In this document: positions 1 through 5,931 of the stretch, one piece after another
Layout of the letters: each line of letters opens with the position of its first letter
Position numbering within the stretch: the stretch's first letter is position 1
Origin: a virus
Taxonomy: Duplodnaviria; Heunggongvirae; Uroviricota; Caudoviricetes
Reading direction: 5' to 3' (one strand)
IMG/VR virus record: IMGVR_UViG_2778261512_000016
Length of the DNA stretch: 8,183 nt
Translations under genes and position numbers: made by a program
The notes under the pieces: generated by a model
What the model was told of the DNA's origin: nothing
Seen by the model: the letters and a program-made list of their open reading frames with translations, nothing else
Database searches by the model: none

Positions 1-431
1 CCATGGAGACGACATTCGTGCTGGATGCACTGGAGCAGGCGTTATGGGCCCGTCGACCGTCCGGCACGGTCCATCACAGTGATAAAGGTTCTCAGTATGT
101 ATCGCTGGCCTACACACAGCGGCTTAAGGAAGCCGGATTACTGGCATCAACAGGAAGTACAGGCGACTCGTATGACAACGCGATGGCGGAGAGCATCAAT
201 GGTCTTTACAAAGCGGAGGTAATACACCGTAAGAGCTGGAAAAACCGTGCAGAAGTGGAACTGGCCACACTCACGTGGGTGGACTGGTATAACAATCGAC
301 GATTGCTGGAAAGGCTGGGCCATACTCCTCCGGCAGAAGCAGAAAAAGCTTATTATGCTTCCATCGGAAACGATGATCTGGCAGCCTGAGTTCACAGATA
401 AAACACTCTCCAGGAAACCCGGGGCGGTTCA
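1..431 (+). mobile_element. 3' portion of an IS629-type (IS3 family) insertion sequence; the element continues beyond the left window edge and its terminal inverted repeat ends at 431
   Basis: Transposase OrfB C-terminus in frame at 3..389. The minus strand at 409..431 reads TGAACCGCCCCGGGTTTCCTGGAGAG, matching my recollection of the IS629/IS1203 terminal inverted repeat. Not database-verified. Confidence 0.75.
3..389 (+). CDS. IS3-family (IS629-like) transposase OrfB, C-terminal fragment (5' end lies outside the window)
   Basis: The translation carries the C-terminal part of a DDE integrase-core domain (HHSDKGSQYVS ... DSYDNAMAESINGLYKAEVIHRKSW ... TWVDWYNNRRLLERLGHTPPAEAE), the pattern of IS3-family OrfB. 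The ORF is open from the window edge and stops with TGA at 387..389. Confidence 0.9.
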   Translation: METTFVLDALEQALWARRPSGTVHHSDKGSQYVSLAYTQRLKEAGLLASTGSTGDSYDNAMAESINGLYKAEVIHRKSWKNRAEVELATLTWVDWYNNRRLLERLGHTPPAEAEKAYYASIGNDDLAA

Positions 432-556: not shown

Positions 557-680
557 CAACAGAATCCTTCCAGATAAATAGCACTCCCCTGTTCGGGGTC
601 CATCCCTCTTATCCCTGCGCGCTACTTAAGTATTTTTGATTCTATTCCGGCACCGCCCAGAACTTCAAACGCGTTGAAAA

Positions 681-708
681 TAAAAACAAAAACCCGCCGA
701 AGCGGGTT
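681..708 (-). terminator. Rho-independent terminator at the 3' end of the hok mRNA
   Basis: Minus strand reads AACCCGC-TTCG-GCGGGTT followed by TTTGTTTTTATTTT: a GC-rich 7-bp stem with a tetraloop and a U-run, about 70 nt downstream of the hok stop. Confidence 0.6.
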
Positions 709-776
709 AAATGCGGGTGCGTTGAGAATGCCTGACACATCAGAGGTGGCGAGGGATTTCTCCCCCGCCGGGTCTC

Positions 777-932
777 TTACTCCTCAGATTCGTAAGCTGT
801 GAAGACAGCGACCTCCGTCTGGCCGGTTCGGATTCGTACCTCGCAGAGGTCTTTCCTCGTTACCAGTGCCGTCACTATGACGGTTAAACAGATGACGATC
901 AGGGCGATTAACATCGCCTTTTGCTGCTTCAT
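777..932 (-). CDS. hokD: Hok/Gef-family small membrane toxin (type I toxin), 51 aa, closest from memory to HokD/RelF
   Basis: Translation MKQQKAMLIALIVICLTVIVTALVTRKDLCEVRIRTGQTEVAVFTAYESEE has the Hok hallmark (single TM helix, then RKxLCE ... EVAAF/VF ... YE). GGAG lies 9 nt upstream of the ATG at 932. The product is internal to the 70-aa ORF listed at 777..989. Confidence 0.85.
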   Translation of the reverse strand: MKQQKAMLIALIVICLTVIVTALVTRKDLCEVRIRTGQTEVAVFTAYESEE

Positions 933-989
933 AGCCTGCTTCTCCTTGCCTTTCGGCACGTAAGAGGCTAACCTACGTGTGTAGAGCAT
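777..989 (-). CDS. mok: mok-like reading frame (in-frame upstream extension of hok, as in mokC/hokC)
   Basis: ATG at 989 opens a 70-aa frame whose first 19 aa (MLYTRRLASYVPKGKEKQA) precede the hok Met. This resembles the in-frame mokC extension of hokC as I recall it. The function is regulatory coupling, not a distinct protein. Confidence 0.5.
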   Translation of the reverse strand: MLYTRRLASYVPKGKEKQAMKQQKAMLIALIVICLTVIVTALVTRKDLCEVRIRTGQTEVAVFTAYESEE

Positions 990-1045
990 AGATATGGCCT
1001 CAGATTAATGTTAAGCGTCTTGCCGGACGCGTAATGTTAACTGGG
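981..1045 (+). ncRNA. sok: Candidate Sok-type antisense RNA covering the mok start and SD region (boundaries approximate)
   Basis: Plus-strand promoter-like elements inside mok: -35 TTGCCT (946..951), 17-bp spacer, -10 TAACCT (969..974). The predicted start near 981 is antisense to the mok initiation region. A small hairpin GCGTC-ttgccg-GACGC lies at 1014..1029, flanked by TAATGTTAA direct repeats, and is followed by a U-rich stretch. Placement is by analogy to sokC/mokC geometry; the 3' end is uncertain. Confidence 0.35.
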
Positions 1046-1107
1046 GCTTTTCTCTATCTGCCTTTGGTGTTGATGCCCGAGGCAGATAGCCTCAAGCACC
1101 CGCAGCA

Positions 1108-1136
1108 ATTCTACTTAACTACCGTTACCTCGCCAA
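1108..1136 (-). promoter_or_regulatory. hok/mok mRNA promoter (sigma70 type)
   Basis: Minus strand: -35 TTGGCG (plus coords 1131..1136), 17-bp spacer, -10 TAGAAT (1108..1113), predicted start about 1100. The leader that follows (GGGTGCTTGAGGCTATCTGCCTC ...) resembles the plasmid R1 hok mRNA 5' end as I recall it. Confidence 0.5.
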
Positions 1137-1611
1137 TATGAAATCAATCAGAAAGGTGATCCATAAGAACAACAGCAAGACAATAAATTGCCATTACAGC
1201 AGCAATAGCCAGCGCACATTTGAGAACCAGCACCACAACCTCCTGTATTGGACGTACACCAGTCCTGATAAATATGAGGCTGTCTCGTCAGTGATTCAAT
1301 ACAACTACTGGGTATAGTTTCTATGATTTTGTTCTGTGGAAATGGAAAACAGCAACCAGTCACCACCAGCACTTCTTTAAACATGCCAAGTCACACGCAA
1401 GCCAACATTATAGTTCCCTTTGAGCGAGCAGATGAAGCTAGCAAAAATATTGATCACTTAGGATGCATTACTAACGTTGCTATGTGTTAACGAACAGGGA
1501 GTGGGTCATCAGCATAAATATTTATGCAGTAGGTTTCTTTTAGGACTAGATTAATCAAAAACATTTAGATAAAATTATAAAATCAAGAAATTGGTGGCAA
1601 TTAATCTTTAA

Positions 1612-1640
1612 TTGTGCCAGCTGAATTTCGTTATTATAGA
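1612..1640 (+). promoter_or_regulatory. Candidate promoter for the two-gene cargo operon
   Basis: -35 TTGTGC (1612..1617), 17-bp spacer, -10 TATAGA (1635..1640), followed by a T8 tract (1649..1656) and the RBS GGAGAG (1665..1670). The match is weak, and promoter-like hexamers occur readily by chance in AT-rich DNA. Confidence 0.25.
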
Positions 1641-1674
1641 AGATTAGCTTTTTTTTGAGTGTTTGGAGAGTAAA

Positions 1675-2370
1675 ATGTTAGAACCACCAAAGAGTTATAA
1701 TGAAATGTTGCCTATGCTCCATAAGGCGACTTTTATTACTACATTTATATTTTACCTATCATTAGTCATTTATGGCTACATGCCATTGGTTGGCATTAAT
1801 GCCAAGTATATCCCCCCCGTTAAAGACTACGAGGAATTTATTAAATGGATATTAACCTTTGGCATATTACCAATTGCATCTTCAGTTTTTTGGTCAGTAA
1901 TTAGTGGAGCTTTAGATCTACATAATAATGTAGCAAAAATTATTGGAATAAGGAAGATGTGGGATAGTCATTTAATTATTAAACCATTAGCAAAAATTGC
2001 AGGCGTTACGAGAAAATTAACTACTGATGAATCTCACAAGGTAATGAGTAAACTGTATTACCCAGAAGTTAAAGAGTTAAAAGACAAACATTACGTTGAA
2101 CTTTTCTGGAACAAAGTTTATTACTTTTGGGTTTTCTTTGAACATACAGTAATCGCATTTGTTACTATTTTAATAATAAGTATCGCCAAATTAACAAATA
2201 TATTCTCTGTTACTGGCTCTTTAATTAATCTTTGGTTGTGGATTATTTCTCTTGTCGCATTTGACTTCCTTATTTTCATAGCATCAGTTAAACCAAGAAC
2301 AGAAAGCCAAGTAAGACAAATACCTGATAGCAAAATAAAAGAATTCTTTAACAATAACAATATTTTTTAA
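1675..2370 (+). CDS. Hypothetical integral membrane protein, 231 aa, four predicted TM helices (two N-terminal, two C-terminal, separated by a charged soluble region of about 65 aa)
   Basis: ATG at 1675 with GGAG at 1665..1668 (the listed ORF starts at an upstream TTG at 1663). Hydrophobic segments: ATFITTFIFYLSLVIYGYMPLVGI, FIKWILTFGILPIASSVFWSVISGAL, FWVFFEHTVIAFVTILIISIAKL, VTGSLINLWLWIISLVAFDFLIFIASV. Low-GC codon usage. No family recognised by eye. Confidence 0.65.
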   Translation: MLEPPKSYNEMLPMLHKATFITTFIFYLSLVIYGYMPLVGINAKYIPPVKDYEEFIKWILTFGILPIASSVFWSVISGALDLHNNVAKIIGIRKMWDSHLIIKPLAKIAGVTRKLTTDESHKVMSKLYYPEVKELKDKHYVELFWNKVYYFWVFFEHTVIAFVTILIISIAKLTNIFSVTGSLINLWLWIISLVAFDFLIFIASVKPRTESQVRQIPDSKIKEFFNNNNIF

Positions 2371-2382
2371 ACGAGGTTGATT

Positions 2383-3036
2383 TTGAATTACAAAATAAAT
2401 GGAATAAACATACGTTCAGAAAATGCAGCGAAACCGCACACTATGCCATCTAACTATCTCTGTAAACAGATTGAAAGCACTAATAAAAATGGCAATGCCC
2501 TTGATTTTGGATGTGGAAAACTTAGATATTCAGAACAATTAGTAAATAAATTTGAAACTGTGACATTTTTAGATTCCAGAAGACAACTAGAAAGAGTGCA
2601 AATTATCAGAGGTGTACAAACCACGATTCCAGATTACGTGATAAATAACTATAAGAATGCTAATATTGTTTCTTATGAAAATATAGATAAAATAACAAAT
2701 CATTATGATTTCATACTTTGCGCAAACGTGCTTTCCGCAATTCCATGTGAATCCACAATTCACAAAGTCCTCAGTGCGATTAGAGAATTATTAAAGAGTG
2801 ATGGTGAAGCACTGATTGTCAATCAATACAAAAGTTCTTATTTCAAGAGGTACGAGAGCGGTATTAAACATTTGCATGGGTATATATACCAAAACTCTCG
2901 CAATGCTTTCTACTATGGTTTATTAGATGTGGATACTGTAAGTAAAATATGCTCAGATAATAATTTAGAAATAATAAAATCATGGAGCAAAGCAGGTAGT
3001 TCATATGTGGTTGTTGGTAAACATATACATATTTAG
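2383..3036 (+). CDS. Class I (Rossmann-fold) SAM-dependent methyltransferase-like protein, about 217 aa; not a DNA methyltransferase by motif content
   Basis: Motif I LDFGCGKL, acidic post-I residue in TVTFLD, motif II HYDFILCANVLSAIP, motif III LLKSDGEALIV. No DPPY/NPPY-type catalytic motif or target-recognition domain. Start is uncertain: TTG at 2383 sits 6 nt after GAGG (2373..2376); alternatives are TTG 2377 and ATG 2443. It begins 13 nt after the upstream stop, so it is probably co-transcribed or translationally coupled. Confidence 0.65.
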   Translation: MNYKINGINIRSENAAKPHTMPSNYLCKQIESTNKNGNALDFGCGKLRYSEQLVNKFETVTFLDSRRQLERVQIIRGVQTTIPDYVINNYKNANIVSYENIDKITNHYDFILCANVLSAIPCESTIHKVLSAIRELLKSDGEALIVNQYKSSYFKRYESGIKHLHGYIYQNSRNAFYYGLLDVDTVSKICSDNNLEIIKSWSKAGSSYVVVGKHIHI

Positions 3037-3350
3037 TTTATTTCAACAAATTATTAGAAAGAGTGATTTGCTTGTTAATTATTAGCTCGGCAGTGCCGGA
3101 TCAACATGACCCTGCCACTTAGGCCATTGCCGGTTTACCTACTTTTGTAAGGTTCAGCATGAAGTTTTTATATACTCTTCCTAATATCAATAGTGATGCT
3201 CGCTTATGTTAGCTGCTTCTTGTACATAGTAGCCTTCTCCGACAGTACTGCAATGAGCGGAGAGTAAAAGTCGATAAACAATAAGGAGGTTCACAATAAA
3301 TATTTCTCGGTGAAACTTTCAAAGCATTCTCTGTTTTGCTAAATCGACAA

Positions 3351-4250
3351 TTATAAATCAACAACATTTAGTGTTATATCAATATTATTTAGCCTTGCAA
3401 TCTCTGATGAATCACTTGCTATTTTAGCTTTTAATTTATCAATATTAATCATATCTTCATGGCTTATATAAACCATATCACCTTGGTTAACTTTAGATTT
3501 GTTCACTATGGCTTGAATAACAGACAAATCATCCATTACACCTCTCATAAATTTCACCATGCTTTGATCTTTGAAGTCAGATATCGATTTTGAACGTTGC
3601 TTACGTTGAATTGTTCCTTTTGTAATTACTTCATTAATTTCTTTTAAACCAGTGAGCATATCAGACAGACTGCCTTCGCAACTCATCCGATGTTTTATTG
3701 CATTGCGATTAATAATATTGAGTATAATTTCGAGTGAATCTTTATCACTCCATGGATGTAATGATGTATAATCATGATGGCGTCGAATGGCGTCAATCAT
3801 ATCCTGGACCATATCTTCATCTGCTTTATCGCAAAGTTCATTCACGAAATAGCTGGGGTCGATTATTTTACAATAACTTGGAGTTAGGTATCTTGAGGCT
3901 TTACAAAAACCAAAAATATATAAAGTAGAGTATTTATCTTTCAGACTCTCTCCTATTTCATTTATTTTCTCAAAAGATTCGATAGTTTTTTTAATTTTTG
4001 CTGGACTTGCATTCGTAGTAACTTGAACTGCTATCATGTTTTTATTATCAGCTAAATCAATGGCGGGAAAATTAACTTTAATCTGATTCATGTTTACCAG
4101 TTCACTCATTTTCAGCGCGCGAAACATAAAGATGGTCAATGACTCAATTATTCTTTCCATGTCATGAAAGCCTGCCTGTTTGCGTTGCGCGATATAAAGC
4201 TGGAGTAGTGCAATATCACTCTGTAAGTTTCTAATAAGTGGATCAATCAT
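3351..4250 (-). CDS. Hypothetical 299-aa protein; the N-terminal region resembles what I recall as the SMEK-type domain (NFPAIDLADNKNMIAVQVTT ... KIKKTIESF) and the C-terminal alpha-helical region contains an R-x4-H motif (RNAIKH) compatible with a HEPN-like RNase
   Basis: Long minus-strand ORF with ATG at 4250 and AAGGA 9 nt upstream; AT-rich codon usage matching the neighbouring cargo genes. Domain assignments are from memory and motif inspection only. Confidence 0.6.
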   Translation of the reverse strand: MIDPLIRNLQSDIALLQLYIAQRKQAGFHDMERIIESLTIFMFRALKMSELVNMNQIKVNFPAIDLADNKNMIAVQVTTNASPAKIKKTIESFEKINEIGESLKDKYSTLYIFGFCKASRYLTPSYCKIIDPSYFVNELCDKADEDMVQDMIDAIRRHHDYTSLHPWSDKDSLEIILNIINRNAIKHRMSCEGSLSDMLTGLKEINEVITKGTIQRKQRSKSISDFKDQSMVKFMRGVMDDLSVIQAIVNKSKVNQGDMVYISHEDMINIDKLKAKIASDSSEIARLNNIDITLNVVDL

Positions 4251-4286
4251 AGCTAATAATCCTTTTCAATGAAGCTGGAGGTGTGT

Positions 4287-4303
4287 TTAACTATTAGTTA
4301 AAT
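4287..4303. promoter_or_regulatory. Perfect 8+1+8 palindrome TTTAACTATTAGTTAAA in the 5' leader/promoter region of the 299-aa gene; candidate operator
   Basis: Read directly from the sequence, 37 to 53 bp upstream of the start codon at 4250. AT-rich context raises the chance-palindrome rate. Confidence 0.25.
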
Positions 4304-4502
4304 TTCTATTTTTATAGAAACAAGCTTTACAACTTCATCAAAGTTTCTCAAATCCTAATCCACTTTGCAAATCCACTAACCATGCTGAATGCTTTCTGTT
4401 GTTAAACATATCCGCTGCTGGCACCAAGCAGACAAACACACTAACTCTACCCTACTCCACAAAAGAGCCAATCAATATCTGAACTAATAAACTTTAATCT
4501 CA

Positions 4503-4925
4503 TCACTTCAATAAATATCGAGCATTTCCCTGATAGAATGCTAGTATGCGCTGCATAACTTCACTCTTCCGGCACTCGCGACAGATTATGTTCTGACGCC
4601 TGTCGTAGCGACGTATTTCTCCGTCAGGTAATGACCAGATAAGGTCCGGATCAACCGCAGATGGTTCCTTCAGCTTTGCCCTTGAGAGCTTTTTACGGGC
4701 ATTTTGCCAGTCCTTACGCGCCTGTTCAGACGGGAATAACCCGTAACCAGAGTTGTATACATCGCCGCTGGCAACCAGCTCTCTTGCGAGAACGCTCATC
4801 AGATATCTTGTCGCACCTGTCTTGACTTCCAGTTGCCGTAACGTCTCACGCCCACTCCGGCGTACGAGTTCAACAACCTGCCCTTTAATTTTTTCCCGCT
4901 CTTCTTGTGTAAAAACTTTTGCCAC
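4503..4925 (-). CDS. Hypothetical prophage protein, 140 aa, basic; function unknown
   Basis: GTG start at 4925 with AGGAGG 4 nt upstream; host-like GC content; it follows the replication initiator gene on the same strand. No family recognised. Confidence 0.55.
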   Translation of the reverse strand: MAKVFTQEEREKIKGQVVELVRRSGRETLRQLEVKTGATRYLMSVLARELVASGDVYNSGYGLFPSEQARKDWQNARKKLSRAKLKEPSAVDPDLIWSLPDGEIRRYDRRQNIICRECRKSEVMQRILAFYQGNARYLLK

Positions 4926-4965
4926 AAGCCCTCCTGAAAATTACCTCATGACCAGAAATTAACAC

Positions 4966-5931
4966 TTACCCCCTGAAGCCCGGCGGAATTTCGGTATCCG
5001 GCTCAGAAATATGATTCACACAACGCTGTACAGACGAACGCCCCAGGCGGATAACCAGTTCATCCCATTTTTCGCGAAGCTTTGACGGACTCATGATATT
5101 TTTTACCCAGAATGGATCCCGCTGCACCCGACCAAACATTTCACAAATTTGTCTGTGAGTTCTGCCATCCAGCATCCGCATTGTGCGCACGTCGTTGGCC
5201 CATGCGGTCCAGTTGGGTTCTTTCGGTCGCGAAATCTCGCCATCATCGCTGGCGGCCTGCTCGTAAAGACTCACGATTCGCCCCCAGATCCACTGCGCAC
5301 ACGCCAAATCTTCCTGGCTGCCCCACTGGCGTTTTTTCGCACTGAACACAACCGCGTCAGGGTGTCGGGTTAAAAAATCCTGTTCAACCGTCTGCGGGTC
5401 CGGTTGCGAAGCTTCCGGACGAGAAGTCTTTTTATTCTCTGTAGTAATCTCTGTTGTATTCTCTGTAAGATCATCAGGCCATTTTGACCCGATGACATTG
5501 AGTCGTTTTGAACCAATGGAGCGTTTCATTTTGACCTCTTCCATCGTGTCATTTTGACCTGATGGAGCGGCGCATTTTAAACCGATGGATTCGCTCAATT
5601 TGCCACCATCTAAAAGCTCGCTCCCGTAGTTGATCGTGTAGAAATTGGTCATATCGCGCTTTGATTTATTGAGCTTTTCACAACGCAAAAGCCCCAGCGT
5701 TTTCAGACTTGCAAACGCGCGCTTTAACGTTGACTCTGACCAGAATGGGAACTGTTCCAGCCATTGTTCCGTTGTGTTATAAATCCAGCGAACACCATCA
5801 CATTCCATGCCGGAGTTGGTATCTCTCAACCAGTAGTGCAGTTGTTGCAAAACAATGGCTTCGTTTAAGCCAATTTTCATTGCCAGCTGCGTGTTTATAA
5901 CCAGTGGGCGTTCAGCAAAAAGAAGACTCAT
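4966..5931 (-). CDS. Lambdoid replication initiation protein (lambda O-like / replisome organiser) with the origin embedded in its coding sequence
   Basis: N-terminal winged-helix-like region (WIYNTTEQWLEQFPFWSESTLKRAFASLKTLGLL); the central region is encoded by the iterons (repeated SIG.K peptides); C-terminal domain ends ... SKLREKWDELVIRL. Preferred start is ATG at 5931 (GGATGG upstream); the listed ORF extends to a TTG at 5985. It overlaps the upstream gene by 20 nt. Confidence 0.7.
   Translation of the reverse strand: MSLLFAERPLVINTQLAMKIGLNEAIVLQQLHYWLRDTNSGMECDGVRWIYNTTEQWLEQFPFWSESTLKRAFASLKTLGLLRCEKLNKSKRDMTNFYTINYGSELLDGGKLSESIGLKCAAPSGQNDTMEEVKMKRSIGSKRLNVIGSKWPDDLTENTTEITTENKKTSRPEASQPDPQTVEQDFLTRHPDAVVFSAKKRQWGSQEDLACAQWIWGRIVSLYEQAASDDGEISRPKEPNWTAWANDVRTMRMLDGRTHRQICEMFGRVQRDPFWVKNIMSPSKLREKWDELVIRLGRSSVQRCVNHISEPDTEIPPGFRG
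5425..5592. repeat. Putative phage origin of replication: five direct iterons of about 18 bp at roughly 23-bp spacing (5480..5590) followed, in the gene sense, by an AT-rich tract (5425..5478)
   Basis: Plus-strand units CATTTTGACCCGATGACA, TCGTTTTGAACCAATGGA, CATTTTGACCTCTTCCAT, CATTTTGACCTGATGGAG, CATTTTAAACCGATGGAT starting at 5480, 5503, 5527, 5550, 5573. The layout mirrors lambda ori inside gene O. Confidence 0.6.

Follow-up and report, generated by a model that had tools for sequence, protein, structure and literature searches.

What is an AT-rich island of three genes doing inside a Qin-like lambdoid prophage, between a hok/sok locus and the replication genes? We ask this of IMG/VR record IMGVR_UViG_2778261512_000016, a Caudoviricetes virus, using the whole stretch of 8,183 nucleotides (the window). 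A preliminary description of the window had proposed a defence or accessory module at about 1400-4460 and could not place its genes in any named defence family. As detailed below, the island probably serves as anti-phage cargo, of which one part is known and another uncharacterised. Our best explanation, to which we give a probability of about 0.6, is a composite cargo of two self-contained units, a ymfE-ymfD-type operon (unit A) and a putative stand-alone SMEK nuclease (unit B), which often move as one 2.9-kb AT-rich block and here lie within an anti-phage hotspot that is hypervariable among Qin-like lambdoid prophages. This explanation starts from what was observed directly: homology and architecture, synteny, the variability of the slot, mobility, and purifying selection on the genes.

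The island can be delimited by composition and by comparison with related prophages. In a sliding window, the guanine-plus-cytosine (GC) fraction is 0.27-0.37 at about 1350-4500 and 0.43-0.56 on either side; for the interval 1446-4404, GC content is 32.3%, and elsewhere in the window it is 47.5% (chi-square 177, p ~2e-40). The list of open reading frames (ORFs) places three intact genes in this interval, in two convergent units, at the positions previously claimed. The interval itself is defined by the slot: when the window is aligned with prophages carrying other cargo between the same hokD and DUF977 genes, homology ends at 1313-1445 and resumes at 4405-4408, with nothing homologous in between (breakpoints were taken against prophages carrying SIR2, L021; NACHT, L022; and AbiH, L023). 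The ends originally proposed from composition were therefore right to within about 50 bases.

Both flanks are host-like, as the preliminary description had said, and both anchors of the slot lie outside the cargo. On the left is the hokD toxin gene (777-932, minus strand; RefSeq annotation of an identical locus, and ORF), with the sok antitoxin RNA region of the hok/sok locus at 927-1101 on the minus strand (Rfam RF01794, 114 bits versus a gathering score of 59, E 4.6e-26). On the right is the DUF977 gene (4503-4925, minus strand; RefSeq annotation), found beside every alternative cargo sampled; the annotated order continues with a replication-region gene, ydaT, dicC and dicA. The element in E. 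coli C7, a lambdoid prophage, adjoins a tRNA-Ser gene and mtfA and carries terminase, lysis, Q, RusA and dicB genes.

The use of the slot was surveyed by megablast: window positions 600-5100 were compared with 5426 complete E. coli genomes, and hits were sampled from successive ranks. The cargo of the window is present at at least 99% identity in 151 of these genomes. In others, the same hokD and DUF977 anchors enclose unrelated genes, which are annotated as SIR2, NACHT, AbiH with a hypothetical protein, AIPR and DUF4209; further alternatives are QueH, an ATP-binding protein with DUF1627, an alpha/beta hydrolase, a TRM11 methyltransferase and DUF7167. Three of the alternative cargoes were checked through their annotation. 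The Qin prophage of K-12 has relE-relB-ydfV-flxA after hokD at the same slot, just as the preliminary description had stated. In lambdoid prophages of E. coli, the content of the slot that separates hokD/sok from the DUF977/replication genes is hypervariable, which bears out the earlier suggestion of a variable cargo slot.

The arrangement resembles the P2/P4 hotspots (Rousset et al. 2022, PMC9122126), where conserved phage genes likewise enclose a site of interchangeable, unrelated defence genes. The ymfE-ymfD pair is itself known from the ends of P2-like prophages, as well as from a P4-like island. Unlike those hotspots, the slot in the window belongs to lambdoid Qin-like prophages and lies between hokD and the replication module. 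In a literature search of incomplete coverage, no paper turned up that describes the slot or connects hokD with a defence hotspot. As phage defence hotspots go, it is an ordinary one, at a place for which we found no description in the literature. As a separate observation, QueH (epoxyqueuosine reductase) is a common alternative cargo (H34-H38), sometimes accompanied by the ATP-binding protein and DUF1627. A queuosine-pathway enzyme is unusual in a defence hotspot, and may be related to 7-deazaguanine DNA modification.

The first gene of unit A (1675-2370, plus strand) encodes a 231-residue inner-membrane protein of the YmfE/Kunado family, with four transmembrane segments and a basic cytoplasmic loop that is conserved. 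Counted mechanically, the ORF begins at TTG 1663 and has 235 residues; the most likely start is ATG 1675, with a GGAGA Shine-Dalgarno sequence (1665-1669) just 5', which gives 231 residues, as in RefSeq. Residue numbers here follow the 235-residue ORF; subtract 4 for the 231-residue protein. A Citrobacter protein, 85% identical and annotated ‘ymfD’, led to prophage e14 of K-12 as a relative, and in a BLASTP comparison K-12 YmfE (b1138) is 60% identical over 232 of 235 residues (E 1e-108). The four-pass topology in the preliminary description agrees with four Kyte-Doolittle hydrophobic segments at about 20-41, 58-80, 148-172 and 181-205; by this hydropathy estimate, the 68-residue basic loop rich in lysine and arginine and the basic tail imply a cytoplasmic N-terminus. 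All 39 family-invariant columns are kept in the protein of the window, and the family invariants include H87, N88, K92, R97, W100, Y132, Y133, P134, D141, H143, Y144 and E160. Searches of Pfam, NCBIfam, PADLOC, PHROGs and PDB profiles returned no match for this protein.

The function of the K-12 protein is addressed by a preprint of 11 September 2026 (bioRxiv 10.64898/2026.09.05.749240). Deletion of hns in BW25113 or MG1655 unmasks immunity encoded by e14, in which Lit acts against T4 and ymfE against T5-like phages; deleting ymfE in the delta-hns strain restores infectivity of T5-like phages. When carried on a plasmid with its native promoter, ymfE protects a strain free of prophages from phages with different receptors, and adsorption is not blocked. 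The authors describe YmfE as an H-NS-silenced membrane protein, suggest that it blocks DNA injection and rename it ‘Kunado’. Unit A of the window is a new member of this family, whose founder has only just been described.

The second gene of unit A (2383-3036, plus strand) encodes a 217-residue class I methyltransferase of the YmfD family, dependent on S-adenosylmethionine (SAM). It starts at TTG 2383 behind GAGG (alternative start 2377), 12 nt past the stop of the ymfE-like gene. K-12 YmfD is 68% identical over the full length (E 2e-113). The methyltransferase call in the preliminary description is borne out by Pfam, where the protein exceeds the cutoffs for Methyltransf_12, Methyltransf_23 and TehB, and SAM motif I is normal (DFGCG). 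The YmfD family is strongly conserved, with motifs SENAAKP, LDFGCGKLRYS, NVLSAIPC, VNQ..SSYFK and SYYG. A single-sequence search of the PDB gave nothing; PDB profile and family searches gave weak matches, all of them to non-DNA methyltransferases (TehB, the OvoA C-terminal domain, UbiG and rickettsial PKMT2). DNA-methyltransferase motif IV, (D/N/S)PP(Y/F/W/H), is absent, and the PADLOC match, to mad2, is weak (9.7e-05) and spans only the SAM-binding core. By sequence, then, YmfD resembles small-molecule or protein methyltransferases rather than DNA methyltransferases. A study of N6-methyladenosine in mRNA that included a ymfD knockout found none of four candidate genes to be solely responsible (PMC12096079).

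We use ‘ymfE-ymfD type’ as an operational definition of our own, for a ymfE gene followed at once, in the same orientation, by the gene for a YmfD-family methyltransferase. In all loci examined in Enterobacterales, Pseudomonas and Vibrio, a ymfD homologue lies directly 3' of ymfE on the same strand, as it does in all 25 IMG/VR loci. The settings include e14, Qin-like E. coli prophages, a P4-like/relaxase island, the ends of P2-like prophages of Providencia and Enterobacter directly after ogr, cassette arrays of Vibrio cholerae among ParDE modules, and three Pseudomonas loci. The distant upstream proteins are true YmfE homologues at 35-40% identity, and have in common the invariant polar loop residues and E160 in the third transmembrane segment. 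On these sequence grounds unit A is a ymfE-ymfD-type operon, with YmfE being Kunado, and the parts of the preliminary description that called it undescribed and unplaceable have to be withdrawn. The methyltransferase partner is overlooked in the Kunado report: ymfD is absent from the text of the preprint, where the hits of the e14 Keio screen are lit and ymfE only (bioRxiv 10.64898/2026.09.05.749240).

Several of these loci deserve mention in their own right. In Pseudomonas sp. PICF141 (L027/L033, 386-5334), ymfE-ymfD directly follows a HamA/DEAD-helicase pair of Hachiman type on the same strand, a further association with a defence island. At the Enterobacter P2-like prophage ends (L005/L006/L007, 11058-11960, minus strand), a 300-residue protein that has no Pfam match is encoded convergently to ymfE-ymfD, beside a CI-type repressor; it occupies the same position as the SMEK protein of the window but is unrelated to SMEK, and may be another partner cargo. 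A scan of genome contigs gave just eight loci, three of which are E. coli-like contigs placed under other taxa. These three (L028-L030; 2.4-3.0 kb, with 90-100% identity to the E. coli island) carry the labels ‘Candidatus Scatousia’, ‘uncultured Haemophilus’ and a Streptomyces assembly, and the taxa are probably artefacts of binning or contamination rather than host range.

The e14 locus is the closest described comparison. Both loci have a full-length YmfE homologue (60%) with the same layout of four transmembrane segments, YmfD (68%) directly downstream, and a position as AT-rich prophage cargo beside a second defence gene. They differ in that the unit in the window occupies a slot of a Qin-like lambdoid prophage rather than the end of e14, and its neighbour is a convergent SMEK nuclease gene rather than the divergent gene for the Lit peptidase. 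Given the 40% divergence, the phage range of the YmfE-like protein in the window may also differ.

Unit B (3351-4250, minus strand) is a single gene for a 299-residue protein that the preliminary description could not place. A named domain family does account for its N-terminal part: it matches SMEK_N in Pfam (PF21941, 1.4e-22, 80.5 bits, cutoff 27) and in NCBIfam (NF033859, 2.2e-30, 104.4 bits, cutoff 30), and residues 8-146 match the Argonaute-associated restriction endonuclease model of PADLOC (Aga_REase, 8.6e-21). What does stand is that the stand-alone architecture is uncharacterised. The protein consists of an Mrr-like PD-(D/E)xK nuclease domain at about residues 1-136 and a family-specific acidic four-helix bundle at about 137-299, which contains R182-x4-H187. 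A profile built from 34 homologues finds one solved structure, the Mrr domain of the Mrr-APAZ protein of a prokaryotic Argonaute (pAgo) system from Kordia jejudonensis (26bh_D, E 4.9e-12, residues 20-138), to which the NFPAID...QxT...K signature of the window protein aligns. The putative catalytic residues E36, D65, Q76, T78 and K85 are invariant across the 34 homologues. We regard unit B as a candidate stand-alone SMEK nuclease, that is, a new architecture of a known effector nuclease, of which the stand-alone form is uncharacterised.

The C-terminal domain is where an alternative has to be weighed, namely that residues 137-299 form a HEPN ribonuclease and the protein is a dual DNase/RNase toxin of abortive infection. 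The R-x4-H motif reported in the preliminary description is indeed there (R182-NAIK-H187); R182 is invariant and H187 is conserved in at least 90% of the 34 homologues, in the context RNAIKH, and the domain is a helical bundle. HEPN domains have their R-x4-6-H motif at the start of the last core helix. AlphaFold2 models of the full-length protein and of the isolated domain (predicted local distance difference test score 85) instead place the motif in an insert between helices 1 and 2 of a four-helix bundle. Although the R-x4-6-H motif is present, none of the 34 members gives a HEPN family match at E values up to 10, and there is no HEPN profile match or preferential structural match for the domain. 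A HEPN identity is accordingly very improbable, and we do not assign the domain to HEPN, though the motif itself is real.

The bundle appears to be private to this family. Residues 137-299 have no family match; a search of 1.84 billion representative sequences gave 50 clusters, which contain only proteins of about 290-320 residues with the domain at the same position, or fragments. The domain is acidic (isoelectric point, pI, 5.5), which would suit regulation or the sensing of a protein better than it would suit binding to DNA.

SMEK is known as the Mrr-like effector nuclease of short pAgo systems and of LmuA in short Lamassu systems (PMC10810196, PMC12205087, PMC12663957), and the protein in the window can be compared with each. 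With the SMEK-APAZ proteins of short pAgo (KjAgo, SPARDA type) it has in common the homologous N-terminal nuclease domain, as seen from the match to 26bh_D, the NFPAID...QxT...K signature and the Aga_REase model. It differs in having no match to APAZ or PIWI, in having ymfD-like and DUF977 genes as neighbours, and in that the contexts of its homologues are without Argonaute. Guide-directed activation cannot apply to the SMEK protein of the window, because there is no APAZ domain and no nearby Argonaute gene. Short Lamassu with SMEK-type LmuA has the same class of effector domain (PMC12663957), but neither the window nor most homologue contexts include LmuB (SMC-like) or LmuC, and the C-terminal domain has no match to the Pfam model of the LmuA C-terminal domain. 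The Lamassu-like operon beside one Citrobacter homologue is complete and separate, with its own LmuA-like gene. Compared with the Mrr-type Type IV enzymes, the domain order is reversed, with the nuclease N-terminal; there is no recognisable reader of DNA modification, the C-terminal domain is acidic, and threonine stands in for the canonical lysine, with K85 seven residues later.

Full-length homologues of the SMEK protein are encoded by solitary genes with varied neighbours. Some are in integrase-bounded islands of Enterobacter and E. coli; others adjoin SymE and TacA toxin-antitoxin genes, SLATT_5 (Pseudomonas), or the Lamassu-like operon and AAA_15/21 genes (Citrobacter), and a Vibrio parahaemolyticus array contains one as a cassette by itself. 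An autonomous defence gene would be expected to show such a pattern, solitary and with neighbours that change. In several genomes (H23-H25, H78, H79, H87; L042, 8324-8587/7692-8327; L088) the SMEK gene is split by a frameshift, with the parts annotated as ‘hypothetical protein’ and ‘SMEK domain-containing protein’, and ymfE-ymfD is intact. The split genes suggest that the nuclease is occasionally inactivated, as expected if it is costly.

With a methyltransferase and a PD-(D/E)xK nuclease encoded 314 bp apart, and found together in the three-gene block, one may think of a restriction-modification-like pair in which YmfD modifies host DNA and SMEK cuts incoming DNA that is unmodified or differently modified. 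This is scarcely credible. YmfD is tied to YmfE and not to SMEK in every lineage examined, and SMEK is widespread with no adjoining methyltransferase; the two enzymes occur independently; motif IV is absent from YmfD, its family and PDB matches are all to non-DNA methyltransferases, and the mad2 match is too weak and too confined to the SAM-binding core to count for the pairing. The restriction-modification reading was rejected on synteny and motifs.

A further question is whether the island is one block or two units, and the answer depends on which loci are compared. Among viral contigs, the trio of genes recurs, its convergent layout unchanged, in no fewer than four prophage contexts: between hokD and DUF977; between a tail-fibre assembly gene and a GT4 glycosyltransferase-integrase-excisionase series; between DnaB...ORF6N and a gene for a 450-residue unknown protein; and with distinct flanks (L057). 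The mobile three-gene block spans 1509-4429, with unbroken nucleotide identity of 83-87% to the trio in three other prophage contexts (blastn versus L055, L057, L059 and L064), and is about 32% GC in every context. Amino acid identities between trio variants are 84-91%, 82-85% and 83-89% for the three genes. In the IMG/VR viral contigs, every SMEK copy of at least 83% identity with enough flank to judge is in a trio.

Other loci contain one unit only. The ymfE-ymfD pair is found without SMEK in e14, P2-like prophages, Pseudomonas, Vibrio, and loci L058, L061 and L063; SMEK is found without the pair in integrase islands, integron cassettes and L090. Pair-only loci match window positions 1527-3111 and SMEK-only loci match 3364-4429, and these matches define two cassettes, each with its own upstream region. 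In Vibrio cassette arrays, where single genes on the same strand are separated by short ORFs among ParDE/Phd modules, ymfE-ymfD is a two-gene cassette (V. cholerae, L024-L026) and SMEK a one-gene cassette (V. parahaemolyticus, L036-L037), and the two were never seen alongside each other. The co-occurrence counts ignore relatedness between genomes. An initial conclusion of ‘two fully independent modules’ was softened when the scans of viral contigs showed the trio recurring as a block. Our reading is of two autonomous units that are frequently co-transferred, with functional synergy possible.

The recurring block could also be taken to mean that the three genes form one integrated system, in which the membrane protein senses entry and the methyltransferase and nuclease act downstream, or in which the units are co-regulated and synergistic. 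We consider this unlikely, while granting it some weight: the continuous block is kept at at least four unrelated prophage positions with its three genes diverged in parallel, the viral SMEK copies of at least 83% identity with judgeable flanks are all in trios, and e14 ymfE-ymfD is likewise paired with a second defence gene, lit. However, each unit is also found without the other, cloned ymfE protected by itself (bioRxiv 10.64898/2026.09.05.749240), the genes are convergent with separate upstream regions, and linkage of moron genes needs no functional coupling.

Returning to the two-unit cargo, we infer the following course of events in the strain that carries the window. In uninfected cells, H-NS would probably silence both units, given their 32% GC; GC content is 30-33% across the genes and their upstream regions, as such silencing presupposes. 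By homology, the YmfE-like protein would most likely act against T5-like siphoviruses once they have adsorbed, stopping infection at or close to the entry of the genome, and YmfD would be a strictly linked cytoplasmic partner that acts with YmfE at the cytoplasmic face. Unit B would be a single-gene system in which the private acidic four-helix bundle replaces a partner-binding module of the Mrr-like SMEK nuclease. The bundle might keep the nuclease off until a cue from infection activates it, perhaps via oligomerisation; the activated nuclease would then degrade DNA, which would amount to abortive infection or direct restriction.

A more ambitious version is tentative, and we would not count on it. 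Here unit A would be a two-component, membrane-associated enzymatic defence in which YmfD works with the YmfE loop and E160 to methylate a non-DNA target, an activity undescribed in phage immunity; unit B would found a new family of single-gene SMEK-bundle proteins with a private sensor; and the trio would be a co-selected pairing of entry-stage and post-entry defence.

A number of points weigh against the anti-phage explanation and its details. The function of YmfE rests on one unreviewed preprint and on a protein 60% identical to that of the window, by which measure specificity may differ. YmfD seems dispensable for the T5-like phenotype, since the e14 deletion screen gave only lit and ymfE. 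In SMEK, Q-x-T replaces the classical (D/E)-x-K, so that catalytic competence is assumed from conservation with Kordia, and the reported activity of the Kordia SMEK/Mrr enzyme is weak. The sensing and activation step is purely inferred; fold searches with the C-terminal domain returned only generic four-helix bundles, with nothing significant from Foldseek. In the literature we found no published experiment or phenotype for any stand-alone SMEK protein or for the island. Among 50,697 isolated phage genomes there is no YmfE homologue, and for SMEK only a weak partial match. Finally, the defence module put forward in the preliminary description holds by homology as the best reading, although neither unit matches a model of its own in PADLOC 2.0.

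These points bear on whether the cargo is anti-phage at all. It might serve lysogenic conversion or addiction, with YmfE/YmfD modifying the membrane or envelope and a toxin-like nuclease stabilising the prophage, or be a mostly silent AT-rich passenger. In keeping with this, YmfD resembles the small-molecule and protein enzymes TehB, UbiG and PKMT2, one trio context adjoins a glycosyltransferase and an integrase (a classical site of lysogenic conversion), the K-12 slot holds a toxin-antitoxin pair, and the island is without a direct phenotype. We nonetheless judge it decidedly improbable: the alternative cargo of the slot consists mostly of defence-type genes, a YmfE homologue has an anti-phage phenotype and SMEK is known only as a defence effector. 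Ratios of nonsynonymous to synonymous substitution rates between diverged copies of the block are 0.08-0.29 for all three genes; the three genes are under purifying selection, which argues against junk.

Outside the coding regions, the AT-rich region 5' of unit A (1509-1674, plus strand), which includes the Shine-Dalgarno sequence already mentioned, moves with the pair; homology to the pair-only locus L058 begins at 1527. Likewise, the region upstream of the SMEK gene (4251-4429, minus strand) accompanies the gene in every context, non-phage islands among them, and homology to the SMEK-only loci L011 and L039 extends across 3364-4429. The spacer between the convergent units (3037-3350) is 37.6% GC; judged from the loci with one unit only, unit A runs to about 3111 and unit B begins at about 3364. 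The spacer was considered as an RNA or a small ORF and rejected: it is conserved no more strongly than the other parts of the block, it shows negligible covariation, and its sole ORF is broken by a 7-nt indel. One trio variant (L055, about 5560-5640) has a tandem heptanucleotide, GAGTTCT, in about nine copies in the spacer between the ymfD-like and SMEK genes; it is not in the window or in other variants. A scan for consensus promoters and terminators gave a site count not above that of shuffled sequence, with no promoter 5' of the ymfE-like gene and no terminator in the convergent spacer.

At the edges of the island, a search for flanking direct or inverted repeats as signatures of insertion returned only short matches at chance level. 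About 25 bases, 4405-4429, are common to the right flank of the slot (where homology resumes at 4405-4408) and the SMEK cassette (which reaches 4422-4429 in unrelated contexts); this overlap could be a recombination junction or mere alignment overhang. Further left, the 3' end of an IS3-family transposase gene lies at 3-389 (plus strand), with the end of the element near 455, and interrupts rem. Only the 5' part of rem is left, at 456-559 on the minus strand (a 55-residue ORF at 392-559). The insertion is strain-specific, as it is not in related prophages with the same island, such as that of strain CD45.

The findings extend current ideas and overturn none. The hotspot is in very common Qin-like lambdoid prophages of E. 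coli, and a search of thousands of genomes between its anchors, hokD and DUF977, could bring in candidate systems. Kunado is half of an operon that is conserved from Enterobacterales to Pseudomonas and Vibrio, and the role of the methyltransferase is directly testable. Studies of SMEK have so far dealt only with slave effectors under Argonaute or Lamassu sensors, but the nuclease also exists as a compact stand-alone protein of about 300 residues. This form spreads in prophage cargo and as an integron cassette by itself, and would offer a minimal model for the off/on control of effector nucleases.

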